From a virus: DNA of 47,813 nucleotides. The position numbers and the translations under genes were made by a program. The stretch lies in the IMG/VR virus record IMGVR_UViG_3300031696_000011. One strand, 5' to 3'. Positions 8,478 through 47,813 of this stretch are shown here, piece after piece. Below the pieces are notes generated by a model. The model saw nothing but the letters and a program-made list of their open reading frames with translations, was not told the DNA's origin and ran no database searches. Numbering within the stretch: position 1 is the stretch's first letter; each line of letters opens with the position of its first letter.

Positions 8478-8695
8478 GCGAAAAAATACCAGACGCAATC
8501 AATCCGTCACACTACACTAGCCATCCTTCGGGTGTTGAGTGTATCCAAATCACAGAGCACATGGGATTTAACCTTGGCAATGCGATGAAGTATATATGGC
8601 GCGCGGATTTGAAGCACGACACAATCGAAGACCTAAAGAAAGCGAGCTGGTATCTAGCCCGTGAGATCAGCAAGCGTGAAAGACTTACGCCCTAA
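8474..8695 (+). CDS. DUF3310-family phage protein, 73 aa
   Basis: Characteristic NPSHY...GVECIQI...GNAMKYIWRA..K...EDLKKASWYL pattern. ATGA overlap with the upstream gene. Confidence 0.8.
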   Translation: MSEKIPDAINPSHYTSHPSGVECIQITEHMGFNLGNAMKYIWRADLKHDTIEDLKKASWYLAREISKRERLTP

Positions 8696-17531: not shown

Positions 17532-17897
17532 CTAAGTAACCTTGCCTAATCGTGCGACTAATTTAGCCGAATAAAGTTTAAGTTTCCCATCGCGGGTGCC
17601 TGTGATCGTTGTTTCGTTGTTGAACATTTGGTAAAACTTCTTCATCAACACCTGAATCACAACCCGACTCGGTGCATCGCTATGTGCAAGCACATTCGAT
17701 ATGTGCAAGTTGTTTGTGTCTTTATCATACTTACCAAAAATCACACCAACGAGTTTATCACCGTCTAGCATCGTTGCCATTCCGTCGTTCTGACTAGATA
17801 CTAACACATGTTGCACAACCTGAAGCTGTGTCCAATCTTTGAATGCACCGTCACGTCTATGCTCTAGGACAAACTTCGCTATGCCAAACACGGTCAT
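17532..17897 (-). CDS. Hypothetical protein, 121 aa (weak GNAT-like beta-strand pattern)
   Basis: ATGA overlap with the upstream gene. GDKLVGVIFGKYDKD...LHISNVL only loosely resembles acetyltransferase cores. Confidence 0.45.
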   Translation of the reverse strand: MTVFGIAKFVLEHRRDGAFKDWTQLQVVQHVLVSSQNDGMATMLDGDKLVGVIFGKYDKDTNNLHISNVLAHSDAPSRVVIQVLMKKFYQMFNNETTITGTRDGKLKLYSAKLVARLGKVT

Positions 17898-19522
17898 GCT
17901 TTAACTCCTATCGGCACCGTTGGTTGCGTGGTCTCACCGCTTAGTGTTGCGCTTGCAAGTGACCCTTGAAAGTCCCATTCAATAAACACACCAACTCGTT
18001 TCCCTGCCAGAATGTCCGGTGTTGGTATAACCACACTGACTAAACTTTTCGCATCGCTGCCCGGAAATGGTTTGGTATCAGTAGATACGAATGTCGATGC
18101 CTCAATCGCACGACTTCGTGTCGCAGCTTTCTTTCCATCTACCTGATACGTAGCATAAACCATACCACCGGTTCGAACGTTGTCAAAAGTCAGCGTGATC
18201 TTTTTCGGAACTTGCTGTTGGTCAGGGTGTGCAGCGGTAAAATCACCCAGATAAATCTGTGCACGTTCAACACCATCACCTGCGTCGAACTCATACAGGC
18301 TGTTGTCTTCTGTGATAAATAGCAACCTACGCTTACCTGCCACTTTAATCTCCGAGAACATCTTGATCTGGTCGACACCTTCTAGCGTATCGACTGACAC
18401 AAACCCGTTTGTCTGCTCGTCAAATATCACAACCACAGGCCCGTGAATGCTGTTCATCGCGAACATTCCGTAGTTGTCATGTTTGATCGTGGCGGTAACA
18501 TTCTGGTCGATCTTGCGAAACAACTCATTCACTGATCTTGAAAACGATGCGTTCTGTCCTTCGTTCTTTGTGCTTCTAATCGCATTAAAGCTACGCACAC
18601 CCAACTCGTCGATGAAAGCATTGTCACCTAGCAGCTCCACAAATGAGAACTGATTAAATGCGCCTGTCGAAAACAAGAATGTGTTATTGAATCGTGGCTC
18701 GCCGAAGATTCGCAACTCAGGATTCGGTGTCACAAAATGTGATATGCGTCCCGATGAAACAAAAATCGAATTGTCTTGCAGCCCAACAGAAGCGAGGCAT
18801 GTGATCTTTTCAAAATCAACCGCATGCGAAACTTGCGCCGCACCACCTTCTGCTTCGTTGTCCAGTCTGTTACCATCCGGCTTGATGATAACCATAAAAT
18901 CCAGCGGACGTCCTGTCAACGATCGCAACAGCTTGTTCCCTTCTGCATCGACAATATACAACACACTCCCGCTGTGCACCATACGTGAACCAATAGGCAC
19001 ATACTCACGCTTGTCTGGTGTCCACGACGTATAGCCTTGCGCCAATCGTGCATTCCCTTGCGAGTCAATAATCCACGGCTGGTTGATTCCATCTTGCACG
19101 ACCACAGATTGCGGCGTGCCTGTAATTCCAGACACTAATGTAATCGCATCGCTTGGGTTCGTGCCTGCTTCACGCCCGTGATTCATCGACGACGCAGGCA
19201 CAAGTGCGGCGTAGATATATTCCACATCCGGATCAAGAGCCAAGTTTTTAATCTGGTAGTAGTTAGATCCTTCAATAGCGAAGTTTTTAATCCACGCCTT
19301 GCCGTCGATAAACACCAAACTAAAAACAGACGCTGCGTAGTTCCCTTGGTAGTTACCTTCAGGCAAACCTAACGTCAGCTTCTTGGGCTTGTTGATCGGC
19401 TCAACCAGACCATCTCGCACACGCACATTGAATGCGATAGGATAGAATCCCGGCCGCTTGCCCACTTTACGTGGATGCACACCGAAGTCCAGTCCTGTGA
19501 AATCTTCAATAACGTGTTCCAT
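17894..19522 (-). CDS. Virion structural protein, putative tail tube/nozzle, 542 aa
   Basis: Called on position (after fibre genes, before internal proteins) and size. No motif recognised. Confidence 0.5.
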   Translation of the reverse strand: MEHVIEDFTGLDFGVHPRKVGKRPGFYPIAFNVRVRDGLVEPINKPKKLTLGLPEGNYQGNYAASVFSLVFIDGKAWIKNFAIEGSNYYQIKNLALDPDVEYIYAALVPASSMNHGREAGTNPSDAITLVSGITGTPQSVVVQDGINQPWIIDSQGNARLAQGYTSWTPDKREYVPIGSRMVHSGSVLYIVDAEGNKLLRSLTGRPLDFMVIIKPDGNRLDNEAEGGAAQVSHAVDFEKITCLASVGLQDNSIFVSSGRISHFVTPNPELRIFGEPRFNNTFLFSTGAFNQFSFVELLGDNAFIDELGVRSFNAIRSTKNEGQNASFSRSVNELFRKIDQNVTATIKHDNYGMFAMNSIHGPVVVIFDEQTNGFVSVDTLEGVDQIKMFSEIKVAGKRRLLFITEDNSLYEFDAGDGVERAQIYLGDFTAAHPDQQQVPKKITLTFDNVRTGGMVYATYQVDGKKAATRSRAIEASTFVSTDTKPFPGSDAKSLVSVVIPTPDILAGKRVGVFIEWDFQGSLASATLSGETTQPTVPIGVKA

Positions 19523-22976: not shown

Positions 22977-23378
22977 TTATTTCAGCGGGCTTTTAAGTTT
23001 GGCCGCTTCTGTAATCACGTTACTCAGTCGCTCTTCCGTGGCAACACCCTTGGCTTTCACACCCGAGTCGTTCTTGTATGTTCCCTTTCGGTTACCAACA
23101 AGCTCGTCAGCTTTGCTCTTTGCAATAATGCTCAAGCCTTTTGCCCGCGACAAGTCAGCAACATCCACGCTATACGCGTTCGTAGTGTAGTATGTGATCT
23201 TATATAGTTCACCATTCGTATAGTGAACCTCAAGAGCTGACACATTGTTTGTTCCGTCTTTGGGGAACTTAGCATGGAAACCAGACTCCTGACCATACCA
23301 TAGTCCACCGCAACCCGTTAGCATCGCAGCAGCAACCGCCACCGCAGCTATGATTAGTTTTTTATTTATCTTTTTCAC
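22977..23378 (-). CDS. Lipoprotein, 133 aa (lipobox LTGC)
   Basis: N-terminus MKKINKKLIIAAVAVAAAMLTGCGG is a signal peptide II with a lipobox. GTG start. Confidence 0.7.
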   Translation of the reverse strand: MKKINKKLIIAAVAVAAAMLTGCGGLWYGQESGFHAKFPKDGTNNVSALEVHYTNGELYKITYYTTNAYSVDVADLSRAKGLSIIAKSKADELVGNRKGTYKNDSGVKAKGVATEERLSNVITEAAKLKSPLK

Positions 23379-23389
23379 AATGTCCTTGT

Positions 23390-23405
23390 AGCAATTCGCA
23401 TGCCA
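23390..23405 (-). promoter_or_regulatory. Sigma-54 type -24/-12 promoter candidate (TGGCATGCGAATTGCT)
   Basis: The minus strand reads TGGCATG-CGAA-TTGCT with canonical GG/GC spacing. It fills the 30-nt gap between the stop at 23409 and the GTG at 23378. Confidence 0.6.
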
Positions 23406-28201: not shown

Positions 28202-28217
28202 AGCACATACCATGCCA
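28202..28217 (-). promoter_or_regulatory. Sigma-54 type -24/-12 promoter candidate (TGGCATGGTATGTGCT) upstream of the capsid gene
   Basis: The minus strand reads TTGGCATGGTATGTGCTT, matching the plus-strand element at 44186-44203 at 16 of 18 positions. It is intergenic, directly after a terminator. Confidence 0.65.
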
Positions 28218-28231: not shown

Positions 28232-28265
28232 AAAAAAAGGAACACCCATTTCTGAGTGTTCCTTT
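28232..28265 (-). terminator. Intrinsic terminator after the scaffold gene
   Basis: Perfect 10-bp stem aaaggaacac (28236-28245) / gtgttccttt (28256-28265), followed on the minus strand by a run of 7 T. Confidence 0.75.
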
Positions 28266-31745: not shown

Positions 31746-33356
31746 TTAGTTTCGTGTTGCGCCCATGTAACCGTAGACTGGTGCAGATTTTCGCGACTCT
31801 CCGCGCGCGTCTACGCCAGAGAAAGAATATTTGCTTTTATCGTATTCCGCAATAATATCTTTAGTGGTTCTGCGACGAAGCAGACGTGAATTTTTAACTA
31901 GGTGTTCGTTTGAATAGAGCGGGTATTCCTTATCAGCAAGAGCAAGAACTGTGCCATCAGCACGGTCAGGAGATCCGTGACCTTTCGCACGTGCAACACG
32001 TTTTGACTCAAGCACAATTTTTCCGTGAACCGCGCCTTGCATATAGTATCGTGTCGCAAGTTGCCGCTTGAGTGCGTCGTCGTCGAACAACACAAGGTCT
32101 AGGTTCTTGAGGAATATTGCAAAGTTAAACCACATCTCTGCGCCGCGATTACCGTATGTCGAATTGTCAATCGCCCGCGCTTGGTTCAATACTCGGTTAA
32201 CTTGAAACCCGTCCTTCCACAACTGATCTATCATAGACTTGCCCACGCCGCCGTCGTCAGCGTTGATATTTTCTGGCGGAATCTTATACCTATTTATCAA
32301 ACCCTTCACATGATCCACCGCATCGGTCGTGTCGTCATACCTAAAGCAAGGCATCGCAATCTGTTTGTTGCCATCAAATATACTGAACACATTTTCGTCA
32401 CCTCCCGCCGCAAGATCAAGCCCACCGTATCGTATGCCTGTCGGTATCACAACCGGAGGTTTTCGATACGCGCGCATGACCTCTTCAAATGTCATCACTA
32501 GCATCTCGTCTATGCTACAAAATTCGGCTAGGTATGCAGACCTAAACCACGCGGAATTTTCACCGAATCGTTCTCGCGCTTCGTCTACTTCGTCCTGTGA
32601 TATGTGCGGACAGTCACGATACGTGACTTTGAACCGATGCCAACGCTCTGACTCGAAACAACCATAGAAATGCCCGGATGGGGAACCTGGTGAAGACACA
32701 TCCAACCGCCGAGTGAGATTATTACACCGGGCGAGAGCTTCGAAAATGGGCTCCGTGACAGTTTTTGCTTCGTCAACAAAGATTGCAAATTCGCCATCGG
32801 GTCGGAGAGTGTGATAACCTTCAGCCAAGCCCGCGTCGTCGGTAGCAAAGAGTTGGATCTTAGATTTGGTTGGGATAAATGTGAGACTGCGGTAGTTGAT
32901 CTTCCAGAGGATTTCGCCATGGAGCTCATTGATAAATCTGCACAGCCGTGAAACTGCGTAGAAGGTTTGTCTGTCAAGTTGCGTGCCTGACGCGGAAGTA
33001 ATCACACAATTCGCTTCCACGTGCGCCATCGCAAGCCACACTGCACACGGTGCAATTAAAAACTGCGATTTTCCCGAACCATTGTTCGCGCACGTCGCAA
33101 TACGCAACACTTTATCCGGCAGCTTGCCATGTGCAAACAACGTCATGACTTGAATCTGCCATGTGTGCACTTTTACGTCGTGATCGCGGATGTATGGGTC
33201 GTAGATGTGCAACAACATCAACGGATCTTTGATCTTGAACCCATTTGCGCCAGCCCAACCCTTCGCATCGGTAATCGACGCTTTAGGCAAGCGCGATTCC
33301 TGGTCGACAGTGGCGTTTTTGATCTGTGCTTCTACTGTTTGTCGAAAAGGCGCCAT
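31746..33356 (-). CDS. terL: Terminase large subunit
   Basis: Walker A-like CANNGSGKSQF. Walker B FAIFVDEA. C-terminal RNase H-like nuclease Asp motifs GGLDLAAGGDENV, ADDGGVG and SPDRADG. Confidence 0.85.
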   Translation of the reverse strand: MAPFRQTVEAQIKNATVDQESRLPKASITDAKGWAGANGFKIKDPLMLLHIYDPYIRDHDVKVHTWQIQVMTLFAHGKLPDKVLRIATCANNGSGKSQFLIAPCAVWLAMAHVEANCVITSASGTQLDRQTFYAVSRLCRFINELHGEILWKINYRSLTFIPTKSKIQLFATDDAGLAEGYHTLRPDGEFAIFVDEAKTVTEPIFEALARCNNLTRRLDVSSPGSPSGHFYGCFESERWHRFKVTYRDCPHISQDEVDEARERFGENSAWFRSAYLAEFCSIDEMLVMTFEEVMRAYRKPPVVIPTGIRYGGLDLAAGGDENVFSIFDGNKQIAMPCFRYDDTTDAVDHVKGLINRYKIPPENINADDGGVGKSMIDQLWKDGFQVNRVLNQARAIDNSTYGNRGAEMWFNFAIFLKNLDLVLFDDDALKRQLATRYYMQGAVHGKIVLESKRVARAKGHGSPDRADGTVLALADKEYPLYSNEHLVKNSRLLRRRTTKDIIAEYDKSKYSFSGVDARGESRKSAPVYGYMGATRN

Positions 33357-34735: not shown

Positions 34736-34751
34736 AGCAATTCCCATGCCA
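34736..34751 (-). promoter_or_regulatory. Sigma-54 type -24/-12 promoter candidate (TGGCATGGGAATTGCT) at the head of the late operon
   Basis: The minus strand reads TGGCATG-GGAA-TTGCT with correct GG-N10-GC spacing. It sits at the upstream edge of the ~26-kb minus-strand gene array. Confidence 0.65.
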
Positions 34752-35151
34752 TGCTTCCGTGCGTCGTTTCGTGTACCACGTTTTCACAATCAAATATGTC
34801 AAGTCGATTCGTAATTTTGGTCATTTTGTAAGATATACACTGTTCGGATGCCGAACTCAGATCGGGCTTTTTATTTCCGCGGCGTAGGATTAGATCGCCT
34901 AATGGTTAGCATAAGGAAAACTAATCATAAGTGAATTACTTATATATGTTAAGCGCGCGGGAAGTTAATACATACGCCAAGCGGGGACGCCGTGAATCCT
35001 TAACAACTTTGGTTAGGAATTGAATCGCCAGTGTGAAAACCCTAGAAAATCGCCGGAGGATCAGAGAGCACGACGAGAGGGCAAACATGAAACGCATATG
35101 TCTTTTCAGAATATCCGGTTTGGTCTGGGGAATGGGCGGTTACTCTTTTCC

Positions 35152-35182
35152 GTGGAATGTGAAGAGAACCTTTCCATTCCAC
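35152..35182 (+). repeat. Hairpin element R1 containing the 18-nt repeat gtgaagagaacctttcca
   Basis: 8-bp arms gtggaatg (35152-35159) / cattccac (35175-35182). The 18-mer at 35159-35176 recurs exactly at 35306-35323. Confidence 0.8.
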
Positions 35183-35305
35183 CCCCCCGCTCTCGAATGG
35201 GCAAATGGGCAATTCCACATTAAAGAGGATTTAATAAAAAAAACATATATACCAAATACTCTCTTTTGTGGTCTACCAAAGTTGCTAACAGTCGACGGAG
35301 AAGTA

Positions 35306-35334
35306 GTGAAGAGAACCTTTCCACATTCCACATT
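35306..35334 (+). repeat. Second copy (R2) of the 18-nt repeat, followed by tandem ccacatt-ccacatt
   Basis: Exact 18-nt match to 35159-35176, with flanking ttccac similarity. Confidence 0.8.
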
Positions 35335-35409
35335 CTCTCCCTTGTCCCTTGTCCGGTTCATGGTTCATACGGTTCCACGCTTTGCTTTGATTCACGCCAG
35401 AGGATGAAG

Positions 35410-35503
35410 GAATGAAGGAGCGGGAGAGTGAAGGAGCGCACGACGCAAGGGAATGGACAAGGGAAGGAGCGCGGAGAATGGGAGTGAATGAAGGAGCGCG
35501 GAG
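35410..35503 (+). repeat. Direct repeats: GAAGGAGCG x4 (35414, 35430, 35463, 35490); 14-mer gaaggagcgcggag x2; 13-mer gaatgaaggagcg x2
   Basis: Counted directly in the sequence. A fifth degenerate copy, aaaggagca, is at 35521. Confidence 0.85.
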
Positions 35504-35612
35504 GTAATAGGTAAAGGGGAAAAGGAGCATGGGAAAAGAATCAGAAGAAAAAGCGAATAGGGGTTGACGGGAAAAGGGAAAGAGTCCATTCTCTCCGTGT
35601 CGCCAATTGGTG

Positions 35613-35637
35613 ACCCGGATTTATCCGGTTGTTTTTT
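35613..35637 (+). terminator. Weak intrinsic terminator candidate
   Basis: 5-bp GC-rich stem ccgga / tccgg (35615-35619 and 35624-35628) with loop ttta, then ttgtttttt. Confidence 0.35.
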
Positions 35638-35861
35638 GACAGGTTCGCAGTTGAGACGGTTTCCATGAAACCAGATTGACTAGAACAAATTGAATAGGTG
35701 AAAGGAAAACCTTTCACGCCGGTGGAGTATCGGCACAAGTCCTAAGCTTGCGAATGAGTTCATTGCCTTCGAAAATTCAGGGTTACAAGCCAAAGTAGAG
35801 TTGTGTCTAACGTTCAAGATCGGCGGTGAAATGGAATGGCCGGAAACTTAGAGAAATTGGG

Positions 35862-35890
35862 TTTACATAGGAGAATCTCTGGATTCTAAT
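35862..35890 (+). promoter_or_regulatory. Sigma-70 type early promoter candidate (TTTACA-N17-TCTAAT)
   Basis: -35 TTTACA at 35862-35867, a 17-nt spacer, and -10 TCTAAT at 35885-35890, directly upstream of the first plus-strand gene. Confidence 0.5.
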
Positions 35891-37270: not shown

Positions 37271-37592
37271 CCCTATCTCACGGGCACACTACACGGTTCT
37301 TGGATGTGAAAGATCTGTCAGCGGCAATCTATGGGACCGCACAGTCAAGAACGAGCGGATAAATACAGTGTTGGGAATCGCGATTGCGCCGCAGGCTTGT
37401 GATACTACGCAAGCCACGGAGATGCAAAACCTACCCGACACAACTTCTGGGACGACTACTCTAGTATTGGCTGAAGGGAGACGAAGCATTAGAAACGGCA
37501 GAGAGTGGAGAGAAATCCATGTGACAAACTCTGTTTATGACCGTTCCGCGTATAGGTTAGCGGCTATTGGCAAGGTAAATGCTCCCGTGTAG
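37254..37592 (+). CDS. Doubtful ORF, 112 aa (an internal start at 37422 is possible)
   Basis: It is the only ORF filling 37.27-37.6 kb. Overlaps the upstream stop. No motifs. Its 3' end contains a promoter-like element. Confidence 0.3.
   Translation: MRNTCNPISRAHYTVLGCERSVSGNLWDRTVKNERINTVLGIAIAPQACDTTQATEMQNLPDTTSGTTTLVLAEGRRSIRNGREWREIHVTNSVYDRSAYRLAAIGKVNAPV
37568..37583 (+). promoter_or_regulatory. Weaker sigma-54 type -24/-12 match (TGGCAAGGTAAATGCT)
   Basis: Correct GG/GC spacing. Shares TGGCA-GGTA--TGCT with the elements at 28202 and 44187. A terminator follows about 50 nt downstream. Confidence 0.35.
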
Positions 37593-37631: not shown

Positions 37632-37675
37632 GGAGCGCACAGTTTACAGACACTCTGTGCGCTCCTTCTCTTTTT
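37632..37675 (+). terminator. Intrinsic terminator
   Basis: Perfect 11-bp stem ggagcgcacag (37632-37642) / ctgtgcgctcc (37655-37665), followed by ttctcttttt. Confidence 0.8.
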
Positions 37676-37719
37676 CATATCTCAATTCAGACTAGGGATA
37701 GCATAGCTTGAATTCAGAT

Positions 37720-37878
37720 ATGAAAGAATACAAACATCACCGTTTATGTGGGCATGGTGGAATCAAATGCCCTTGCTGTTCGCCGATGAACACAGTCAAG
37801 AAATCACGTGTTATGATTAACCGCCGATACCGGCGCACGTGCAAACAAGAACTGCATACCTATGACGAAAGCGAATAA
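37720..37878 (+). CDS. Small basic Cys-rich protein, 52 aa (below the ORF-track cutoff)
   Basis: Translated by hand: MKEYKHHRLCGHGGIKCPCCSPMNTVKKSRVMINRRYRRTCKQELHTYDESE. Has a CxH...CPCC zinc-knuckle-like pattern and a basic tail. Confidence 0.45.
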   Translation: MKEYKHHRLCGHGGIKCPCCSPMNTVKKSRVMINRRYRRTCKQELHTYDESE

Positions 37879-38053
37879 GATCAGAGATGGCCCTGTCATG
37901 GGCTAATATTCTCAATCACCGAAGTTGGCCCGGTAATAATAGGCCAACACATACTTCAATTCAGGAGGAAGTGTAGACCATCGGCGAAATGTTTGATTAT
38001 GACCCAAACTACTGACGGTAACGCTAGGTGGAGCCTTCCTTCTGAATTGAATT

Positions 38054-38149
38054 ATGAACAAAACTGATAGAATCCTTATCGTCCTGTGCATCATGCTTGC
38101 GCTACTTGTGGTCATGGCAAATGTTGCAGGCTACATCACTCACCGATGA
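38054..38149 (+). CDS. Possible 31-aa single-pass membrane peptide
   Basis: Translated by hand: MNKTDRILIVLCIMLALLVVMANVAGYITHR. Its TGA overlaps the ATG at 38146 (ATGA). Confidence 0.3.
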   Translation: MNKTDRILIVLCIMLALLVVMANVAGYITHR

Positions 38150-38994: not shown

Positions 38995-39010
38995 TGGCAT
39001 GGTTCTTGCT
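38995..39010 (+). promoter_or_regulatory. Sigma-54 type -24/-12 promoter candidate (TGGCATGGTTCTTGCT)
   Basis: TGGCATG-GTTC-TTGCT sits in the 78-nt gap between the genes ending at 38989 and starting at 39068. It matches the consensus TGGCACG-N4-TTGCW at all but one position. Confidence 0.65.
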
Positions 39011-39678: not shown

Positions 39679-40327
39679 CCATATTCCATCGCACAACCCA
39701 ACACCGTTGCCTACCGTGCTCAAGGTGCCGGGATACAGTGTTGCTGTGTCTCGTTTGATCGACTGGATCATTGCACCGGGCGAAATTGTGGGTGCAGGTG
39801 GGTTGCTTGAACCGCGCGAGATTAACATCGTGCTTGCAGACTTCATGCTACGGCATTCCAAGTTCCACGAATACGGAATGATCCACGCTGTTGAACAAAT
39901 GGGCGAGCACACACGCTACTGGCTGTGGCGTAAACGTGACTGGAGCGAGCGAGCACATGTGCATCGTATCGACAAGGCAAAGAACGACATTGAACGAACA
40001 CGGAGTATGCGTAGCACCAAGACACGCGACACAATCTTTAGTCGGTTGTGTAAAATGTTCCCGAAGTTTCTGACTGAGCGTAAGCTGGGTATGGAAATGG
40101 TTCGGATGTGGATCAGTGAACACGACGACAACGACGAGTTCAAGTATTGGCTGAACAAGATGGGATACTTTGAACTGTCGGAAACTGATAGAGCTGCGGT
40201 TGAAGAGGCAGCGGATGAAGCAGACGAGATTGAAGCAGCAGATCCGTTCGATCCGAATTGGATCAGCGAGATAGACGCAGGACTACTTGCACGAATGAAG
40301 AAGGAATACAGCAAACCATTATCATGA
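39671..40327 (+). CDS. Hypothetical protein, 218 aa (acidic C-terminus)
   Basis: The ATG at 39671 gives an 8-nt overlap with the upstream gene. The ORF track's longer form would overlap by 62 nt. Confidence 0.55.
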   Translation: MSDHIPSHNPTPLPTVLKVPGYSVAVSRLIDWIIAPGEIVGAGGLLEPREINIVLADFMLRHSKFHEYGMIHAVEQMGEHTRYWLWRKRDWSERAHVHRIDKAKNDIERTRSMRSTKTRDTIFSRLCKMFPKFLTERKLGMEMVRMWISEHDDNDEFKYWLNKMGYFELSETDRAAVEEAADEADEIEAADPFDPNWISEIDAGLLARMKKEYSKPLS

Positions 40328-42468
40328 CACCTGAACAGATCAAAGCATCGCTATTCAAGCTGATGCCTAAAGCAGCACCGGGCAATGCGCTTGCACGTGC
40401 TGAAGAACAAGCGAAAGTTGACGCGGAGAAACGACAACGTGCACGTGCTGTGCTAGAAGCAGAGGTTGCTAAGTTCGTTGGCGAATCAGCTGCGTCTAAC
40501 ATGGGTGAGAAACGACTTCGCGAGATGCGAGACATTGGACGCAAGGCTGCGGAAGATGCGACGTTCCATGCTGCACTTGCCGATGCGAAAGATAACCCTG
40601 TTGATACTGTTGACGAACAGATCGCCGCGCTGACTAGCATTCACGAGAACAAAACACCTGCTCGTGGACGTATGACACCTGCTACTCACGACAAGATGTC
40701 TGCTGTTATCAAGTTCGAGCCTGAAGTATTGGACATGTATGCCATGCGATACGGCAGCGACGAGAAGAAATCGTTCCGCATTGATTTGGAAAACCGAATG
40801 CTTCCATGCTTGAAACAGTTCAATCGTGGCCCGAAGTTACTGCACTTTCAAACACATCCGTTACCAAGGGCATTGCGTTTGCTTGGAGACGAGCATCAAT
40901 CAGCATTGTTGATCGCGCCGACAGGTGCGGGCAAGACATACTTCTTTGCGACGTTGATTAAATATCTGCGACTATACTTTCCCGAAGACTATCCGAAAGA
41001 TAGACAGATCATGGTTGTCACGAAGCCAACGGTGGTTAAGCAGACACAGCGTGTGTTGTTCGGTGAGTTTGGGATTACGAATGTGATGGTGACGTCGTAT
41101 CCAGAGATGACACGGTCGCAGATTAGTGGGATATATGTATCATGGGAGACACGGGTTACGAGAGATGGTGAGGTGAAAGAGGTTCCGATATGGAATCCAG
41201 TGTTCAGGCCGTCACTAATCATATGGGATGAGTGTCAGTGTCTCAAGAATTTCGGCAGCACACAGAGCATAATTGCAGCAGCGTATGGGCAACGATTGAA
41301 TCCGACAGGACATGTGGCAAGTGCAGCGGATTGGGAAGGTGACCCGATTAGTTTGAGTGTGTCTGCCACGCCATACTCACGTCCGCAGAATGCGAAGGTT
41401 GTGATCTCGTTGCTAGGCCCAGTGATTAACAATCGCAAGGTAACACTTAACAACTTCAACGAGTGGGCACGGGATATATGTGCAAGACACAACACAGACT
41501 TAGATAAGTGGAGTCCGGTTGCGATGAAGAGTATTCAGGATTCGATTGAACACCTTACGATTAGGTTCGACAGGATTCAGTATCGGAAGCGGACACTTAT
41601 CAAACAGAAGGTGATTGAGTTCGAGACGGTGGAAGAGAAGAGCGAATACGGTGAAGCGTTTACTGAATACATGAAGAAGCGCGAGGAGTTGGAGGCGAAA
41701 GAACTGTCGTCAGGAACTGAGATACTAGTGGCGATGATGATGTTTCGCAAGAAGGCAGAGATCATTCGTGCACCGCGGCTTGCACAGATGGGACTGGATA
41801 GTATGGACTTGAGCAACAACGTAATCATTGCGTGTGCATTTCGTGAGACACTTGAAACAATCAACGAACTGTTGCTAGACGTTGGTGTAGGTAGTGACAA
41901 GATTGCACAGATCAAAGGAGGACAAACAGCAGATGCCAGACAAAAACAAATCGACGGATTCCAACGGGACGAGCGTCATATTATGTTGCTTATGTTTAGT
42001 GCAGGTGGAGCGGGACTTTCGTTACATCAATCAAACACTGGAGATTTCCCGAACAAACGTCCACGAGTTGTGTATCTGCCACCAGTGTGGAACGCAGAGG
42101 AACTCGTTCAAGTCCTTGGTCGAGCACATCGCGTTACTTCTGATAGCACAACTCGACAATACATAGTCTGGTATAAGGACACGATCGAGAGCGAGGTTGC
42201 TGAGAAAGTTAAGAAGAAGTGTAGCGCACTTAAAGAAGTTGTCGGGAAGAAAGAAGACTGGAGTATTGCATTCGCAGGCAAGGAGATTGGTGAAGGGATA
42301 GAAGATCAGATGGAGATAAATTTCAAAGGTGTGCGAGACAAGAGCGACGAAGAAGTGAATGACGACGACGACGAGAATGAAGTGGCATCAGACTTCGAGG
42401 TCATGGATTCTGAGGAAGAACTCAAGCGAGCCGAGGTTGCGGATGCTATACTTGAACATACATTATGA
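40324..42468 (+). CDS. SNF2/SF2-family helicase, ~714 aa
   Basis: Motif I LLIAPTGAGKTYF. Motif II IIWDECQCLKN. Motif V MFSAGGAGLSLH. Motif VI QVLGRAHRVTS. ATGA-coupled start at 40324. Confidence 0.85.
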   Translation: MTPEQIKASLFKLMPKAAPGNALARAEEQAKVDAEKRQRARAVLEAEVAKFVGESAASNMGEKRLREMRDIGRKAAEDATFHAALADAKDNPVDTVDEQIAALTSIHENKTPARGRMTPATHDKMSAVIKFEPEVLDMYAMRYGSDEKKSFRIDLENRMLPCLKQFNRGPKLLHFQTHPLPRALRLLGDEHQSALLIAPTGAGKTYFFATLIKYLRLYFPEDYPKDRQIMVVTKPTVVKQTQRVLFGEFGITNVMVTSYPEMTRSQISGIYVSWETRVTRDGEVKEVPIWNPVFRPSLIIWDECQCLKNFGSTQSIIAAAYGQRLNPTGHVASAADWEGDPISLSVSATPYSRPQNAKVVISLLGPVINNRKVTLNNFNEWARDICARHNTDLDKWSPVAMKSIQDSIEHLTIRFDRIQYRKRTLIKQKVIEFETVEEKSEYGEAFTEYMKKREELEAKELSSGTEILVAMMMFRKKAEIIRAPRLAQMGLDSMDLSNNVIIACAFRETLETINELLLDVGVGSDKIAQIKGGQTADARQKQIDGFQRDERHIMLLMFSAGGAGLSLHQSNTGDFPNKRPRVVYLPPVWNAEELVQVLGRAHRVTSDSTTRQYIVWYKDTIESEVAEKVKKKCSALKEVVGKKEDWSIAFAGKEIGEGIEDQMEINFKGVRDKSDEEVNDDDDENEVASDFEVMDSEEELKRAEVADAILEHTL

Positions 42469-42779
42469 ACAAAGATCTAGCACTAGAAGATGCGATTGAA
42501 TTGATCGACGCGATCATGAAGGGTGAGATAAACCCGGAGGATGAGTGTGAGAAATGGCTGAGGGCATATGCACCTAAGCGATTACGAGATGCTACGAGCC
42601 ACGACAAGGACAAGATAGCTGAACACAATGTGAGAATCATACACATTATGCAGAAGATAAATTGGCTTGAAGGACAGTGGGACAGGAACGACAACAACAA
42701 CAAATGTAACAAGTTTGTTCAAGACAAGCTGACGAAACTACACACAGAACTAACCAAACTACAAACAAAAGATGAGTGA
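42465..42779 (+). CDS. Hypothetical protein, 104 aa
   Basis: ATGA overlap with the helicase gene. Confidence 0.5.
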   Translation: MNKDLALEDAIELIDAIMKGEINPEDECEKWLRAYAPKRLRDATSHDKDKIAEHNVRIIHIMQKINWLEGQWDRNDNNNKCNKFVQDKLTKLHTELTKLQTKDE

Positions 42780-43200
42780 TACAGACCTGACCAAAGAAGA
42801 GATTGCGGACGGCGACGACTACATTGCCGAGACAATCGCGCAACAAGCGCGAGACAAAGCTGCGGCAAAGAAACCACCAGCACGACAGCTTGAATTGTAT
42901 GTGATCTTCGCGTGGAAGACACCGCAGTATAGGCTGCACGAATGGTGTCAGACTGGTGAGACGGCACCTAACGACTCTCAGTGTGTGCATTGTGATCGCA
43001 CGATGGGTGACGCTGATGATCGTGTATGTGATTCAGGCATGGCTGGTGCGCTTGGTGGATGGAACGACTACAAAGGTGGTAGTGGAAACTTCGGCATTGC
43101 GATGTTGAAGTGGCAGACATTGAAAGCGCAAGGACATAACAACTGTCAGGTGTTGAACATACACAGCGGCAAGCTAGAGTTGGAGGTGTATGATGCTTAG
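42772..43200 (+). CDS. Hypothetical protein, 142 aa
   Basis: 8-nt overlap with the upstream gene. Contains CVHCD...C Cys residues. Confidence 0.5.
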   Translation: MSDTDLTKEEIADGDDYIAETIAQQARDKAAAKKPPARQLELYVIFAWKTPQYRLHEWCQTGETAPNDSQCVHCDRTMGDADDRVCDSGMAGALGGWNDYKGGSGNFGIAMLKWQTLKAQGHNNCQVLNIHSGKLELEVYDA

Positions 43201-44176
43201 CACAGAGGAGTTGGCGCGGATAAATGAGGCGACCAAACGGCAAGCGGCAACTGTTGAAGCGAACAAGGCGCGGTTGCTAAATCAACCACCGAACCCTAGC
43301 GGAGTGGATCACGGTGCGATCAAACGTAAGCTAGAAAAGATGGGACTGTTTGAGTTGGCGAATGATCTCAAGGTCTGTCGTCCAGCAAGTCTTGCTTCGC
43401 TTGATGAGTTTATCACAGATGACGCGGCGATGTTGCGGCTCAAGAAACAGGTTGAGTATCTGTGCGAGATGGATGACCCAGTGTTGATTCACGGTGAGAG
43501 TGGGACAGGCAAGGAGTTGATAGCTCGTGCGTTGCATGGACGAAAGTCAGCGCCGTTTATCGCAGTCAACACGACAGCACTACCACTTCATCTGATGGAG
43601 AGTGAGTTATTTGGTCATGCGAAAGGATCATTCACCGGTGCAGATGCGAACAAGATCGGGATACTTGAAGGCGCAGGTAACGGGACTGTGTTTCTGGATG
43701 AGATAGGTGACATGGAGTTGACGCTGCAATCGAAGTTGTTGCGTGTGTTGCAAGAGAAAGTAATCAGACCTGTCGGCACGAATGCTGAGCGTGAGATACA
43801 TTGTCGAGTAGTGGCAGCCACGCATCAGGTGATACGACGTGAGGAAACAGTTCATGGAACTAAGTCAGTCACGTGGAAGAAAGGTTTCCGTCAGGATTTA
43901 TACTGGCGTCTTGCTACACACACGCTTCACATCTCACCGCTTCGTGATCGTCCAGATGATATCCGTGAGATACTAGATGCGGTCATAGATCCTGACCAAC
44001 GATTGCCTGAATCATTCCGTGACGAGATGGTAACGATGCAACTGGAAGGCAACTTCCGTGAACTCAATGCGTTGTGTCAGCGTAAGTTTCTTGCAATGAA
44101 AGTGGACGATACGCAGGGTGAACTTTATATACCCGGTGTTGTGACACACGCAGCCTACGTCCACACAAAAGAGTAA
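43190..44176 (+). CDS. Sigma-54 interaction-domain AAA+ ATPase (minimal bacterial enhancer-binding protein; no sensory domain or HTH seen)
   Basis: VLIHGESGTGKELIARALH (Walker A), FGHAKGSFTGA (GAFTGA loop, nt 43625-43642), GTVFLDEIGDM (Walker B), LQSKLLRVLQE, FRQDLYWRL, ISPLRDRPDDI and GNFRELNA. About 95 aa precede the module and about 30 aa follow it. Confidence 0.9.
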   Translation: MMLSTEELARINEATKRQAATVEANKARLLNQPPNPSGVDHGAIKRKLEKMGLFELANDLKVCRPASLASLDEFITDDAAMLRLKKQVEYLCEMDDPVLIHGESGTGKELIARALHGRKSAPFIAVNTTALPLHLMESELFGHAKGSFTGADANKIGILEGAGNGTVFLDEIGDMELTLQSKLLRVLQEKVIRPVGTNAEREIHCRVVAATHQVIRREETVHGTKSVTWKKGFRQDLYWRLATHTLHISPLRDRPDDIREILDAVIDPDQRLPESFRDEMVTMQLEGNFRELNALCQRKFLAMKVDDTQGELYIPGVVTHAAYVHTKE

Positions 44177-44186
44177 CGCAACCTGT

Positions 44187-44202
44187 TGGCACGGTATGTG
44201 CT
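44187..44202 (+). promoter_or_regulatory. Sigma-54 type -24/-12 promoter candidate (TGGCACGGTATGTGCT)
   Basis: TTGGCACG-GTAT-GTGCTG begins 11 nt after the activator gene's stop and lies 28 nt upstream of the ATG at 44230. Confidence 0.65.
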
Positions 44203-44229
44203 GTATAAGAACTGTCCACCTCCCCGAGT

Positions 44230-44463
44230 ATGAACAAGAAAATATTTAGAAATTCTGTCGGCTGGATTGTTCTGGTATGGAATCGTGCTGACTGGGAGTT
44301 CATCGCAGTCCATGAGAACGGTTGCTGTAAGGACATACCGTGGACAGCAGTGGAAGAGAAAGATAAAAGTCTTGCGATTGATACGATCATCGGCAAGCTG
44401 ACAAGACGTGAGTTCAAATACCAACAAGAACTCCAACAAGATTTGCCCAACGCTACTTCGTAG
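44230..44463 (+). CDS. Hypothetical protein, 77 aa
   Basis: First ORF after the promoter-like element. Confidence 0.5.
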   Translation: MNKKIFRNSVGWIVLVWNRADWEFIAVHENGCCKDIPWTAVEEKDKSLAIDTIIGKLTRREFKYQQELQQDLPNATS

Positions 44464-44523
44464 CACGGCATTAACAAACGAGCATAATGCTCATCGACAA
44501 GAACAGTTAGAAAAAGCAAAGTT

Positions 44524-45171
44524 ATGAGTAACGAAGCCGCAGACCAAAACGTTGAGACCGAAGTTGCCGATGCCCCGGCACAAGCCATCGACCTGAGCAA
44601 CGACAGCGCTGCTGAAGCGAACAAAGCCGTGGTCATCATCGACCCTGAGACTGGTAAGGACAACACTTACCTGACTGACGACGACGGCGACAACTACTTG
44701 GAGTTCGAAGGACTCCGTGTGTATGTCACCACATTCGGCGGCGCATTGAAGGGTGTGCTGTATCACTACAAACAGTTCACCTCGCTTGACAAGGCGATTG
44801 AAGTGCACGGCGCAGACAAAGTCCTCGCTGCGTTGAACGACAACCTGAATGCCGGAACCCGTAACAAGGTGAAGTCGTCCAAGATTCCGAAGTTCGACGA
44901 CAGCAAGGCGCAGGAGTCCGCGATTCGCACGATGCTTACGGAACATCCTGTTCAGTTCACCATCAACGAAGCGATTCGTTACGAGCCGGGTGAGCGCGAT
45001 CAGACGTCTGGTCAGATCCTCGCCGTGCTGAAGGCAGCGCAGAAGGATGGTGTCGGAACGACCAAGATCGCCGCGATCATGCAGCGTTTGATGGCCGTGA
45101 TGGCGAAGGAGAACTTGCGTCGTGGTATCGACGACGGACAGGTTCACGTTGCCGACGACGACGAGCAGTAA
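44524..45171 (+). CDS. Acidic hypothetical protein, 215 aa
   Basis: Clean ORF with acidic termini (ends DDGQVHVADDDEQ). A strong terminator follows. The long antisense ORFs are compositional shadows. Confidence 0.65.
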   Translation: MSNEAADQNVETEVADAPAQAIDLSNDSAAEANKAVVIIDPETGKDNTYLTDDDGDNYLEFEGLRVYVTTFGGALKGVLYHYKQFTSLDKAIEVHGADKVLAALNDNLNAGTRNKVKSSKIPKFDDSKAQESAIRTMLTEHPVQFTINEAIRYEPGERDQTSGQILAVLKAAQKDGVGTTKIAAIMQRLMAVMAKENLRRGIDDGQVHVADDDEQ

Positions 45172-45183
45172 GAAGTCACATGT

Positions 45184-45214
45184 TGGGGAGGACATCCACT
45201 CCCCAGCATTTTTT
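45184..45214 (+). terminator. Intrinsic terminator
   Basis: 7-bp stem tggggag (45184-45190) / ctcccca (45199-45205), followed by gcatttttt. Confidence 0.75.
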
Positions 45215-45318
45215 AAATCGAACACACTAGCAAGCACAACGCAATGGCGATTTCGTTTATTGGTTTAGCTGGATCGCAGGTCGTGACTAAACACCATGAT
45301 GTTAGTGTGTTCGATTTA
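45214..45318. repeat. 16-bp perfect inverted repeat (taaatcgaacacacta / tagtgtgttcgattta) enclosing 73 nt
   Basis: Arms at 45214-45229 and 45303-45318, extendable to 18 of 19 bp. Located between a terminator and the gene at 45342. Confidence 0.85.
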
Positions 45319-45341
45319 GAAAATGCAAACAGGAAATAGAT

Positions 45342-45995
45342 ATGAGTATTGACCCAATCAAGTTAGCGATAGGTGACAATGAAGGCCACGAAGGTCAGTG
45401 GAAGCAACGCAGGTTGAAGCGTAGCACATACACGGTGAAGAATGCAATGAAATTTCAAGCATACTTTGACCTGTCTATACGTGACAAGAAGCCTGTGTTG
45501 ATACCAGCAAGACCATACAATGTGAAGCTAGACACGTTGTATAAAAAGGTATGCGATGGTTTGTTGTGGCTAGTGCAGAACATGCAACAAGGTGCAGCGC
45601 AGCAAGCGTATGCGTTGCTCAAGTCGCAGTCGCAGTTTACTAGAGTCGAGGGACATGCAGGCGGCGTGAAGATTACATGGGATGTGCACGAAGAGATACT
45701 TTCACCAGAATCAATCAAAGCTGTGACAGGTGTTGCGCCTGTTGGGATATTACAATCAGCTACGACGCAAGAGCAGATGTCGGATGCAGTAGCGGACATC
45801 AAACAAGTCGGGTTGACTGACAGAATCAGGACGCATCTGGAGAGCACAAGCGACACTGGTATATTCAACGAGCAAGGACTGAACCTGTCACCGGAAAAGG
45901 TGCGGGACATAGCGCGACTTCTCACAGACGCAGGTGTGCCACCGGCATTGGCTGTGATCGAACCGACGCAAGTAAGATTCTTCAAACCATCGTAA
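45342..45995 (+). CDS. Hypothetical protein, 217 aa
   Basis: Preceded by an aggaaatagat-ATG SD-like site. Confidence 0.6.
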   Translation: MSIDPIKLAIGDNEGHEGQWKQRRLKRSTYTVKNAMKFQAYFDLSIRDKKPVLIPARPYNVKLDTLYKKVCDGLLWLVQNMQQGAAQQAYALLKSQSQFTRVEGHAGGVKITWDVHEEILSPESIKAVTGVAPVGILQSATTQEQMSDAVADIKQVGLTDRIRTHLESTSDTGIFNEQGLNLSPEKVRDIARLLTDAGVPPALAVIEPTQVRFFKPS

Positions 45996-45996
45996 C

Positions 45997-46197
45997 ATGG
46001 ACATGATTAACAAACTGGTTGACACACCTGCAGGTGTAGGGTTGTGCAGGATTATAATTAATGGGCAAGCTATTGTCTATTATCTTGACAAGCCATTCTT
46101 TGCGTATGATGTTGGCGATATCAAACTGTGCGACATGCAAGATGAAATGTTGTATGCACAGATTGAAGCTAAAGCAATCGAGGAACTATCGAAATGA
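45997..46197 (+). CDS. Hypothetical protein, 66 aa
   Basis: Tightly packed. ATGA overlap with the ligase gene. Confidence 0.5.
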   Translation: MDMINKLVDTPAGVGLCRIIINGQAIVYYLDKPFFAYDVGDIKLCDMQDEMLYAQIEAKAIEELSK

Positions 46198-47027
46198 AAC
46201 CACCGTTTAAGTCAATGCTCTTTTGTAACGAAGAGTGGGAGTGGAGTGATGTGATGTTGCCTGCGATGGTGCAGCCTAAGCTAGATGGTGTGGCTGCGTA
46301 TAAGGCAGGCGGTGAGATATGGACGAAGCGAGGTAAGTTGTTTCCGAACAATCGCATACGCACATACTTGCGCGAAGTTCTTGAAGAAGGAATGGACTGT
46401 GAGATATGGCATCCGCACATGACATTTCATCAGATCTCTGGGTTCTGTCGGAGGATAAAAGATACACCACCAATTGGTTGGCTTGCGATGGTGTATGATC
46501 GTAGTCGTCCGTATATGTCGGAGGCGTATGTGATAAGGTATCGCAAGCTGCTTGAGTGGTATGACGACTCGCCGCATGTGAACGAGCAACAGACAGTTCG
46601 AATCATGGACAGTGTATTGTGTCACACGCAAGAAGACATAGAAGCAACTCACTTTGAGAACACACTACAAGGACAAGAAGGTAGTATGATACGTGCGTTG
46701 CATGCGCCATACTATCACGGGCGGACTGGGATTAAAGATGGGTTCGGATTCAAGTTCGTAGGACTGGAGTATGACACGGCGATGTTCACTGGAACTACCG
46801 CGAATTCCAACAGCGTCAAAGCTGCGACGATGATAGGTGCGATAGTGTGCGAACATAAAAAGTGGGGCAGGCTACATATAGGAAGCGGGTTCGACCATAC
46901 GCTGTCCAAAGATATGTATGACAACCCTGCTCGTTACACAGGCCAAGTGGTAAGATTTAAGTATAAGAAACATGGAACAGAAGAGAAGCCACGTCAACCT
47001 ATCTTCGTGAGCTTCGAAGGGAAATAA
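46194..47027 (+). CDS. lig: ATP-dependent DNA ligase, 277 aa
   Basis: Motif I adenylation lysine VQPKLDGVAAY (KxDG). Motif III-like DCEIW. Motif IV EGSMIR. C-terminal VVRFKYKKHG...PRQPIFVSF, typical of small phage ligases. Confidence 0.8.
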   Translation: MKPPFKSMLFCNEEWEWSDVMLPAMVQPKLDGVAAYKAGGEIWTKRGKLFPNNRIRTYLREVLEEGMDCEIWHPHMTFHQISGFCRRIKDTPPIGWLAMVYDRSRPYMSEAYVIRYRKLLEWYDDSPHVNEQQTVRIMDSVLCHTQEDIEATHFENTLQGQEGSMIRALHAPYYHGRTGIKDGFGFKFVGLEYDTAMFTGTTANSNSVKAATMIGAIVCEHKKWGRLHIGSGFDHTLSKDMYDNPARYTGQVVRFKYKKHGTEEKPRQPIFVSFEGK

Positions 47028-47031
47028 GATT

Positions 47032-47319
47032 ATGGTCATAACAGAACTGAAGGTGCGACTGGTTAGATTCCAGAATGCATGGATGGCGATACCATTGGTG
47101 AGACATGCGGAAGTGGTAGGTCACACTAAAAGTTATCTGCCTGCACAAATCGAACATCGTAAAGGCTACGGCGATTCACCGCATGAGGCACTTGGCCACT
47201 TGCTATCGTTGTTCAACAAAGACACGATCCAACTTACCCGTGCGTTTGTTGATATCAACGACGAGGCGACAATGCGACACTGTGTGTTCACTTGCAGATC
47301 TGAATACGAACTGATATGA
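47032..47319 (+). CDS. Hypothetical protein, 95 aa
   Basis: ORF in the plus-strand arm. ATGA overlap with the next gene. Confidence 0.5.
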   Translation: MVITELKVRLVRFQNAWMAIPLVRHAEVVGHTKSYLPAQIEHRKGYGDSPHEALGHLLSLFNKDTIQLTRAFVDINDEATMRHCVFTCRSEYELI

Positions 47320-47681
47320 ATCCGATCGCATCGAACATCGACGAGCTGCTTGGACATTCGCTAGCAGACTTGGAGCGTATGACCACGGCGCAGATGGTAT
47401 TGTTTCTCACGCCAGCATTGTTGGATCAGCCAGCGATGAACATGAAAGAGCTGGAGAAAAGCGCGAGTGAGACTAAGATCACGATACCTAAGAACATCGA
47501 CATGTCCGGTGTGACGCGTAGACCTAGCGCGAAGAAAGGTCCGAGCGATTTGAAGAAGAGCGTGAAGAAACGTGGCTCGCTGGTGAGAGGGAAGAAATTC
47601 CTAGACAACAAAGACTTCGACCAGCTGTGTAAAGAAACTGGATTTGATCCTGAACTGATAGACGACCCAAACCAAGAATGA
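47316..47681 (+). CDS. Hypothetical protein, 121 aa (Lys-rich C-terminal half)
   Basis: Its stop overlaps the ATG of the nuclease gene, which crosses the junction. Confidence 0.5.
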   Translation: MNPIASNIDELLGHSLADLERMTTAQMVLFLTPALLDQPAMNMKELEKSASETKITIPKNIDMSGVTRRPSAKKGPSDLKKSVKKRGSLVRGKKFLDNKDFDQLCKETGFDPELIDDPNQE

Positions 47682-47813
47682 GCCTTAAACGATTCAGCAA
47701 ATATACAACCTACGTCCCCGGTGAGAAACTCATCGTGCGACTAGATCCATCCACGTTTGCAATCTCTGACTGCGAGCGTGAGCTTGAGCTAGGCAACCTG
47801 TTAGGTTGGGTGG
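47678..47813 (+). CDS. First ~45 codons of the same Cas4-like nuclease gene (continues at base 1..954)
   Basis: The ATG at 47678 overlaps the TGA of the preceding gene (ATGA). Reading MSLKRFSKYTTYVPGEKLIVRLDPS... joins frame 1 at base 1 through the 127-nt overlap. Confidence 0.7.
   Translation, partial: MSLKRFSKYTTYVPGEKLIVRLDPSTFAISDCERELELGNLLGWV
47687..47813. repeat. Right copy of exact 127-nt terminal overlap
   Basis: Identical to 1..127. A length of 127 nt is what a k=127 assembler leaves on a circular contig. Confidence 0.95.

Follow-up and report, generated by a model that had tools for sequence, protein, structure and literature searches.

Activators of sigma-54-dependent transcription have been grouped by the domains that accompany their AAA+ domain. 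In the account of Francke et al. (2011), PspF, HrpR/S and LafK are without a signal domain, CtcC and FlgR are without a DNA-binding domain, and FleT is without both; such proteins are placed in type Ic (PMC3162934). FleT of Rhodobacter (Cereibacter) sphaeroides activates transcription only as a hetero-oligomer with FleQ (PMC3162934). Here we describe a viral gene of comparably reduced architecture. It lies in the IMG/VR virus record IMGVR_UViG_3300031696_000011, a stretch of 47,813 nucleotides that was analysed as a whole and is called the window below, where the open reading frame (ORF) at 43190..44176 on the + strand of a program-made ORF list encodes a protein of 328 amino acids. An initial annotation, made from the sequence without database searches, had named this protein a minimal sigma-54 enhancer-binding protein. 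Our analysis makes it likely that the protein, an activator consisting of the AAA+ domain with little else, opens host sigma-54 complexes at phage promoters and acts as an early-to-middle/late switch.

Precedents for the use of sigma-54 by phages are few. YuA, a phage of Pseudomonas aeruginosa, is reported to depend on host sigma-54 for its development (PMC5053324). A promoter trap as well as ONT-cappable-seq confirmed one sigma-54-like promoter of YuA (PMC5053324, PMC10914365), and most of its promoters are of another, phage-specific type (PMC10914365). No report of a phage-encoded sigma-54 activator was found in the full-text literature searched, outside which most subscription journals lay.

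A sigma-54 activator reduced to its AAA+ domain

The gene and the parts of its product are arranged as follows.

43190..44176, + strand: minimal sigma-54 activator gene (AAA+-only enhancer-binding protein), from the ORF, Pfam, PHROGs, PDB sequence, AlphaFold and Foldseek
43190..43411, + strand: N-terminal extension, residues 1-74, with helices at 5-30, 41-50, 54-59 and 66-72 and no known domain
43412..44122, + strand: AAA+ sigma-54 interaction domain, residues 75-311, from Pfam, PDB alignment and the model
43493-43516, + strand: Walker A, GESGTGKE, residues 102-109, by motif
43625-43642, + strand: L1 loop, GSFTGA, residues 146-151, by motif
43688-43705, + strand: Walker B, VFLDEI, residues 167-172, by motif
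About residues 216-229 of the AAA+ domain, + strand: clade-specific beta-hairpin insertion, from alignment and model
43886-43912, + strand: R-finger region, FRQDLYWRL, residues 233-241, by motif
44048-44071, + strand: sensor II, GNFRELNA, residues 287-294, by motif

The protein matches Pfam PF00158 (Sigma54_activat) with an E value of 1.6e-53 and a score of 181.3 bits (cut-off 20.2), the match extending over residues 75-246 and profile positions 2-167 of 168; PF14532 (Sigma54_activ_2) matches as well (E=1e-13). Even at E<=1, Pfam gave no match in the activator to HTH_8 (PF02954), Response_reg (PF00072), GAF or PAS, and no match of any kind in residues 1-74. The profile check that the initial annotation had proposed thus came out as it expected, with PF00158 highly significant and HTH_8 absent, and its statement that the protein has no receiver, GAF, PAS or Fis-type helix-turn-helix (HTH) domain is borne out by the same search. 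Every motif that it quoted is present in the order given, among them PLRDRPDDI at residues 250-258. The lengths that it gave for the flanks of the module have to be revised: 74 residues precede the Pfam domain, the figure of about 95 being the count to the strand before Walker A, and the AAA+ fold reaches to about residue 311, so that about 17 disordered residues follow it in place of the 30 or so claimed. In PHROGs the protein belongs to phrog_7998, a family of unknown function (E=5e-42).

The alignment of the window protein with 39 homologues, 40 sequences in all, gave an AlphaFold2 model with a mean predicted local distance difference test (pLDDT) score of 90.9. The model places the AAA+ fold at residues 75-311, shows residues 312-328 as disordered, and folds residues 1-74 into one long helix (5-30) and three short ones; the extensions, for which the initial annotation had called for a structure prediction, are no more than a few helices at the N-terminus and a disordered tail at the C-terminus. 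Searches of PDB sequences matched the AAA+ domains of FleQ, NtrC1, NtrC4, ZraR, LuxO, FlrC, NifA and PspF with E values of 1e-45 to 1e-32, the alignment spanning residues 8-236 of PspF and, for LuxO, reaching query residue 321. All of the top 50 Foldseek matches in the PDB were sigma-54 activator AAA+ domains (E values of 1e-21 to 1e-17), including those of FleQ, FlrC, NtrC1, NtrC4, ZraR, PspF, LuxO, NifA and DmpR, with target-normalised template modelling (TM) scores of about 0.8 and root-mean-square deviations of 2.2-3 A. Among the predicted viral structures of BFVD, the only neighbours were generic AAA+ proteins with 12-20% identity.

The motifs needed for ATPase activity and for contact with sigma-54 are all intact and lie in invariant alignment columns: across the 40 aligned sequences G105, G107, K108, D170, E171, R240 and R290 are invariant, and R234 is nearly so. 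The GSFTGA variant of the L1 loop, the element that touches region I of sigma-54, is no oddity of the phage protein, since among the database hits it is found in 28 of 48 full-length cellular activators, as well as in 44 of 72 short ones. Some proteins of the activator fold are known to work without sigma-54, examples being TyrR and the Rhodobacter NtrC that acts with sigma-70. It is nevertheless very improbable that the phage protein is a degenerate homologue of this sort or a remodelling ATPase, and that the DNA motif described below binds some other factor. A GxFTGA match is missing from 5 of the 72 short homologues, as such an explanation might lead one to expect, but the sigma-54-independent members of the fold have lost GAFTGA, whereas GSFTGA, the two R-fingers and sensor II of the phage protein are all complete and invariant, and the DNA motif is canonical at unconstrained positions too, with exact GG-N10-GC spacing.

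Counted from the first residue of GNxREL, the short homologues end after 18-42 residues and the long ones after a median of about 100. The Walker A motif of the short ones starts anywhere from residue 40 to residue 115. The N-terminal extension is poorly conserved and is shorter, almost nil, in most family members. Its helices were considered as a possible HTH and rejected, as they have no net charge, are poorly conserved and are absent from most of the family; no separate fold search was made. At the site of the AAA+ beta-hairpin, two relatives of the activator, P0004 (encoded at 10001-11074 of the locus L077) and P0002, have a longer insertion, and that of P0004 contains four cysteines in a zinc-ribbon-like pattern, C..CLYC..C.

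Sigma-54-type promoters in the phage genome

The promoter pattern TGGCAY-N6-TGCT, that is TGGCAYNNNNNNTGCT, occurs six times in the window, against 0.27 +/- 0.57 expected from 100 shuffles, none of which reached six.

44187..44202, + strand: sigma-54-type promoter TGGCACGGTATGTGCT, 11 nucleotides past the activator stop codon, preceding g77 (44230) and g215 (44524)
38995..39010, + strand: sigma-54-type promoter TGGCATGGTTCTTGCT, the best match in the genome, heading g121, g82, g236, the helicase gene, g104, g142 and the activator gene
34736..34751, - strand: sigma-54-type promoter TGGCATGGGAATTGCT, heading the leftward late block (a 73-amino-acid ORF, g139, the esterase/lipase gene, TerL and onward)
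31941..31956, - strand: sigma-54-type promoter TGGCACAGTTCTTGCT, 200 nucleotides upstream of a 637-amino-acid ORF, within the 3' end of TerL
28202..28217, - strand: sigma-54-type promoter TGGCATGGTATGTGCT, upstream of the 433-amino-acid ORF 26723-28024
23390..23405, - strand: sigma-54-type promoter TGGCATGCGAATTGCT, in a 30-nucleotide gap before ORF 22977-23378

The GG-N10-GC spacing is exact at all six sites. Each of the six, and each of the nine best-scoring candidates, is oriented in the sense of the local genes. Five of the six lie between genes, in a genome of which 11.5% is non-coding. The block that follows TGGCATGCGAATTGCT runs from ORF 22977-23378 through the tail-fibre-like ORF to an ORF of 1758 amino acids. 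A looser canonical -24/-12 pattern, with two mismatches allowed, is not enriched (38 occurrences against 32.8 expected), so the promoter signal sits in the near-perfect sites. The near-consensus -24/-12 promoters that had been reported ahead of the operons in the initial annotation are well above the chance level.

This excess bears on a second explanation, in which the activator mainly switches on or jams the host sigma-54 regulon (nitrogen assimilation, motility, stress) and the motifs in the phage genome are secondary. From what is known of NtrC and PspF whose DNA-binding domain has been deleted, an activator that lacks this domain would be expected to act on any closed sigma-54 complex, those of the host among them. 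Other phages do target the sigma-54 holoenzyme, but the proteins described in the literature searched, Xp10 P7 and T7 Ocr, are inhibitors. We regard this explanation as improbable, because it leaves unexplained both the sense-oriented promoters of the phage genome, present in 20-fold excess, and the near-universal presence of a promoter right after the activator gene across the family described below. An effect on the host regulon is more likely to be an extra consequence than an alternative.

Weaker candidate sites and terminator-like hairpins were also found.

37568..37583, + strand: weaker candidate site TGGCAAGGTAAATGCT of the early region, a possible counterpart of the extra early-region site in the relatives L076 and L077
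6780..6795, + strand: weaker candidate site TGGCACGGGTCAAGCT, upstream of the primase gene, within the 3' end of PolA
18152..18167, - strand: weaker candidate site TGGTATGGTTTATGCT, inside ORF 17894-19522
45180-45209, + strand: strong intrinsic-terminator-like hairpin, following g215, about 1 kb past the 44187 promoter
About 28232-28262, - strand: strong intrinsic-terminator-like hairpin with a T-run after it, just upstream of the 28217 promoter

At the sites 34751(-) and 23405(-), the predicted transcript start lies 0-2 nucleotides from the next start codon, which implies leaderless mRNAs. Neither sigma-70-type sites (11 against 15.9 expected) nor the Bacteroidota -7 motif TAnnTTTG (29 against 22.5) are enriched in the window.

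Conservation of the activator and its promoters in related phages

A scan of IMG/VR for the activator yielded 72 loci. In 53 of them the gene order helicase, activator, g215, g217, PD-(D/E)XK, g193, PolA, primase is common with the window, at 25-45% identity; the other 19 have no window gene in common, and nearly all of these have long activator ORFs. A database search found an activator with 93% identity on Tara Oceans contigs of about 47 kb and many homologues of 240-330 amino acids, with PF00158 only, on contigs of 45-55 kb. The longer homologues in the same search have receiver and HTH_8 domains.

The promoter accompanies the short form of the activator. At 45 short-activator loci in IMG/VR, an exact TGGCAYN6TGCT is found on the same strand, 3-46 nucleotides after the stop codon. 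When loci were de-duplicated by clustering at 90% identity, the exact motif lay no more than 80 nucleotides past the stop codon in 15 of 28 short-activator clusters, against none of 11 long-activator clusters. A variant differing in the last base adds two loci, the motif lies 216-689 nucleotides downstream in four more, and only three of the short-activator family loci examined have no such site, even a relaxed one. Motif density is 0.119 per kb in family loci, compared with 0.013 per kb at loci outside the family. In 79 unique family sites the bases that the pattern did not fix agree with the canonical sigma-54 consensus as well, with a T before TGG, a G after TGGCAY and a T before TGC.

Three of the promoter positions of the window, namely those of the late block, the helicase operon and the gene end of the activator, fall inside the stretches fetched for relatives. 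Sites recur at these positions in L073, L082, L076 and L077, the activators of which are 93%, 56%, 55% and 50% identical, respectively, to the window protein. The 38995 site has an equivalent ahead of the helicase operon of L073, L076, L077 and L082, and equivalents of the 34751 site are found in L076, L077, L082, L025, L027 and L053. The late-block 16-mer at 34751 is identical in L073, where the sequence just upstream of it has an indel and many substitutions, and in the post-activator site of close relatives the GG and GC elements are retained, with differing bases in the spacer. A distant relative, L050, has a site comparable to 31956 at the 3' end of its TerL gene. The initial annotation had stated that homologues in related phages without -24/-12 elements would speak against its proposal; the homologues do carry such elements, at conserved positions. 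Its further claim that the phage redirects the host RpoN holoenzyme finds computational support in the promoter enrichment and in the conservation of the promoters with the activator family. The G+C (GC) content of the family ranges from 34 to 56%, which suggests several host groups.

Several observations were made at the margins of this family. In an IMG/VR scan with TGGCAYGNTTCTTGCT, the matches listed were mostly to unrelated contigs, and an activator lay in the fetched stretch of 1 of 120 of them; with a database of this size the scan is uninformative. Tandem TGGCAYGNTTCTTGCT copies, two or three within 50-250 nucleotides, are present in unrelated IMG/VR contigs (L083, 241-497; L154, 374-478; L086, 8132-8211; L098, 3235-3291), with no activator gene in the short stretches fetched; other viral elements may use clustered sigma-54 promoters. 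One relative sits in the metagenome-assembled genome GCA_041438375.1. Phage DP SC_2_H4_2017 from human faeces (L079; MT121960.1, 22340-23263) has an activator-like ORF of about 300 amino acids with GAFTGA and without an HTH. This gut phage contig, with a GC content of 31.5%, is unrelated to the window phage, and no TGGYAY-N6-TGC site lies within 6 kb of the ORF; it may be an independent case of a phage-borne activator.

The phage genome

Bases 1-127 of the window are repeated exactly at 47687-47813, an overlap that indicates a complete circular or circularly permuted genome with a unique length of 47,686 bp. The + strand encodes a PD-(D/E)XK nuclease, a Sak4-like ATPase, PolA, a primase, an SNF2-type helicase and an ATP-dependent ligase, and the - strand TerL, a lipase/esterase, tail-fibre-like and virion proteins, and the 1758-amino-acid ORF. 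The tail fibre matches in PHROGs fall on ORF 20465-21613. The 637-amino-acid ORF is a portal candidate and the 433-amino-acid ORF 26723-28024 a capsid candidate. About half of the window ORFs match no family in Pfam or PHROGs. No RNA polymerase or sigma family was recognised in scans of 41 window ORFs against these two collections, in agreement with the initial annotation.

Short AAA+-only activators also exist in cellular genomes. One of them, P0067 (303 amino acids), is encoded at 10001-10912 of L081, on a 327-kb contig of GCA_964394665.1 with a GC content of 73%; the start of its gene overlaps the end of a UvrD-type helicase gene, its neighbours are lipopolysaccharide and MreB genes, and no phage-type sigma-54 motif was found near it. 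Examples of this kind might suggest that the window is a cellular fragment or some other mobile element with an ordinary truncated activator. We consider this extremely improbable: the assembly closes at 47,686 bp through its 127-bp terminal overlap; TerL, tail fibre, virion proteins, PolA, primase, helicase, Sak4 and ligase are encoded; the window holds no cellular housekeeping genes; and its layout is shared by its relatives, viral contigs in IMG/VR that are 45-55 kb long.

The phage is distant from those in GenBank phage records, cultured isolates included. Megablast of 40000-47813 against this collection gave no nucleotide match, the best matches of PolA and TerL are at most 25-34% identical, and the 433- and 637-amino-acid structural ORFs have no match. 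Matches of the activator in the collection (tblastn) are below 46% identity and are mostly to bacterial contigs mislabelled as phage. These mislabelled or contaminant records (AGRM01000002/4/5, AFYI01000005/6, CAKLQH02..., CAKLQF02..., OR85xxxx) are large bacterial contigs with ordinary NtrC, ZraR, AtoC, PrpR or RtcR genes.

A non-coding region of 1.1 kb at 34752-35890 separates the divergent late (-) and early (+) blocks. It contains four GAAGGAGCGC-like repeats at 35410-35499 and an exact 18-nucleotide repeat at 35159-35176 and 35306-35323, and could be an origin of replication or an early regulatory region. Palindromic, operator-like TTTCATATCTCAATTCAGA repeats in the early region, at 37673-37725, 37950-37971 and 38035-38056, may be binding sites of an early regulator. 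The 1758-amino-acid ORF (8692-13968, -) has a hydrophobic, glycine- and alanine-rich N-terminal region, neither a Pfam or PHROG match nor a D-x-D-x-D motif, and conservation limited to its C-terminal part in three relatives. A GGAG, GAGG or AGGA motif lies upstream of only 6 of 43 predicted genes, and many starts follow A-rich sequence; this scarcity of Shine-Dalgarno-like motifs is a weak clue to a host lineage poor in them. An Rfam scan of the window found no RNA families, and no tRNAs were found in it.

A model for a sigma-54 switch

The domain content and the fold, the enrichment of the motif, where the promoters sit and how they are oriented, and family-wide conservation have each been shown in silico, and they are consistent with the following course of events. 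Early rightward transcription by unmodified host RNA polymerase would read through into the helicase-activator operon and supply the first activator; no terminator is predicted on the + strand between the early ORFs and the activator gene. By homology to known activators, the protein would assemble into an AAA+ ring, and its GSFTGA loop, together with ATP hydrolysis, would open host sigma-54 closed complexes already in place on at least six phage promoters. Since the 38995 site heads an operon that ends with the activator gene, positive feedback is predicted. Of the replication block, g77 and g215 at the least would be driven by the 44187 promoter. The four leftward promoters probably lead the block of packaging, head and tail genes, inside which sites stand before the 637-amino-acid, 433-amino-acid and tail blocks. 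A phage with this programme would need a host with rpoN.

The activator most likely acts from solution, and its activity may be set by its concentration, not by a signal. This proposal follows from its having no DNA-binding domain and from the finding that k-mer sharing among the six upstream regions, searched for a shared upstream activator site, was not above that of shuffles, a comparison of low power. The most serious of the rival explanations meets the proposal at this point. The phage protein would be a FleT-like co-activator, inactive alone, that forms mixed rings with a host DNA-binding activator and redirects or respecifies that activator to phage promoters. FleT, the sole characterised activator without both accessory domains, works as a FleQ/FleT hetero-oligomer, and the N-terminal helices in the model of the phage activator could mediate contacts with a partner. 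We think such a co-activator unlikely. The six promoters have no shared upstream sequence, close relatives differ freely in the stretch immediately upstream of the late promoter, and the N-terminal extension is almost nil in most family members; moreover, the GC span of 34-56% suggests many hosts, and reliance on one host partner would then be fragile.

Several considerations weigh against the model that we prefer. Its support is wholly computational, and FleT, the one AAA+-only activator that has been studied well, shows no activity unless a DNA-binding partner is present. That the host has rpoN is an assumption, as a search of genome_contigs with the single TerL sequence gave no match and one with a TerL alignment gave one irrelevant match at 25%. 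The ORFs without a family match, about half of the total, leave room for a very divergent phage RNA polymerase or sigma factor. No early promoter was found with the sigma-70 and Bacteroidota motifs, so the source of the first activator is conjecture; the terminator at 45180-45209 makes control of the full replication module by the 44187 promoter uncertain; and six regions give the search for upstream sites little power.

A more far-reaching version of the model would place the whole post-early programme of a widespread family of tailed phages on host sigma-54 through a self-amplifying, solution-acting lone activator. The programme would take in the operon of the helicase and activator genes, the replication block or at any rate its first genes, and the genes for packaging, head and tail, with every poised host sigma-54 promoter fired and host nitrogen, motility and envelope genes rewired. 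We give this version an even chance of being correct. Its last element comes from the nature of the activator, which, being untargeted, would fire every poised host sigma-54 promoter during infection.

Implications

Phages are known to take over transcription with their own sigma factors, with sigma appropriators, with antiterminators and with inhibitors of host RNA polymerase. Supplying the ATPase activator alone while borrowing host sigma-54 is undescribed within the literature searched, and the more far-reaching version of the model, if true, would make it a new class of phage transcriptional takeover. What we describe places a known mechanism in a biological setting that is new for it, and a large family of uncultured phages has conserved it: the short activator with its promoter is a conserved hallmark of these environmental, largely marine phages. 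If the model is correct, the hosts of these abundant phages would be confined to lineages bearing rpoN, a requirement that excludes, for example, cyanobacteria and actinobacteria, which are not known to have rpoN, and infection would be predicted to perturb host sigma-54 regulons. As a natural minimal system, the family could show whether an AAA+-only activator suffices in vivo, a question that FleT leaves open, and it could furnish synthetic biology with compact, orthogonal activator and promoter parts.

Comparison with known systems

Among phages, YuA is a partial precedent in that its transcription programme uses host sigma-54. No homologue of the activator was found in Pseudomonas phage records at E<=1e-5 (tblastn), so YuA would rely on a host activator or on something unrelated; it has no activator of its own, whereas the window phage encodes one and has sigma-54 sites at the head of most of its transcription units. 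The likeness to T4 gp55/gp33/gp45, SPO1 gp28, Mu C and lambda Q is that a phage factor made early retargets host RNA polymerase to middle or late promoters, and T4 late activation, too, is enhancer-like (PMC2988020). Those systems replace or modify sigma-70-family factors or work by antitermination. The window phage, in contrast, would supply only an ATP-driven activator and borrow a pre-existing alternative sigma factor of the host; no sigma factor or RNA polymerase of its own was recognised among the 41 ORFs scanned, many of which are without any match.

Among cellular proteins, the phage protein has the attributes of an enhancer-binding protein, with PF00158, the ATPase motifs, the L1 loop and an AAA+ fold with L1 and L2 insertions, and cognate -24/-12 promoters accompany it in silico. 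It is not of the NtrC type, whose PF00072 receiver and PF02954 HTH_8 domain it lacks and its long homologues possess. PspF and HrpR/HrpS resemble it in having no cis regulatory domain, their activity being set by expression level or by a trans-acting partner, but they differ in having kept a C-terminal HTH and in binding to upstream activator sites; only about 17 residues of the phage protein lie past the AAA+ lid, it has no HTH, and its promoters have no shared upstream motif. Helicobacter pylori FlgR and Chlamydia CtcC, with which the initial annotation had compared it, are apt comparators in that they have no C-terminal HTH and that activation from solution is the accepted model for them. 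Both, however, keep an N-terminal receiver and are controlled by phosphorylation, and the phage protein has no receiver; its closest cellular analogue is therefore FleT, not FlgR or CtcC.

Like FleT and the AAA+-only activators of type Ic, the phage protein is without a signal domain and without a DNA-binding domain, and its architecture is that of the sigma-54 AAA+ domain only. The gene of FleT is itself under a sigma-54 promoter, as a feed-forward step in a temporal hierarchy, and that of the phage protein would be so too. FleT, encoded in the chromosome, has flagellar class III genes as its targets and shows no activity unless FleQ is present, whereas the phage protein belongs to a virus, with promoters that have no detectable shared upstream site and no partner gene seen nearby or elsewhere in the genome.

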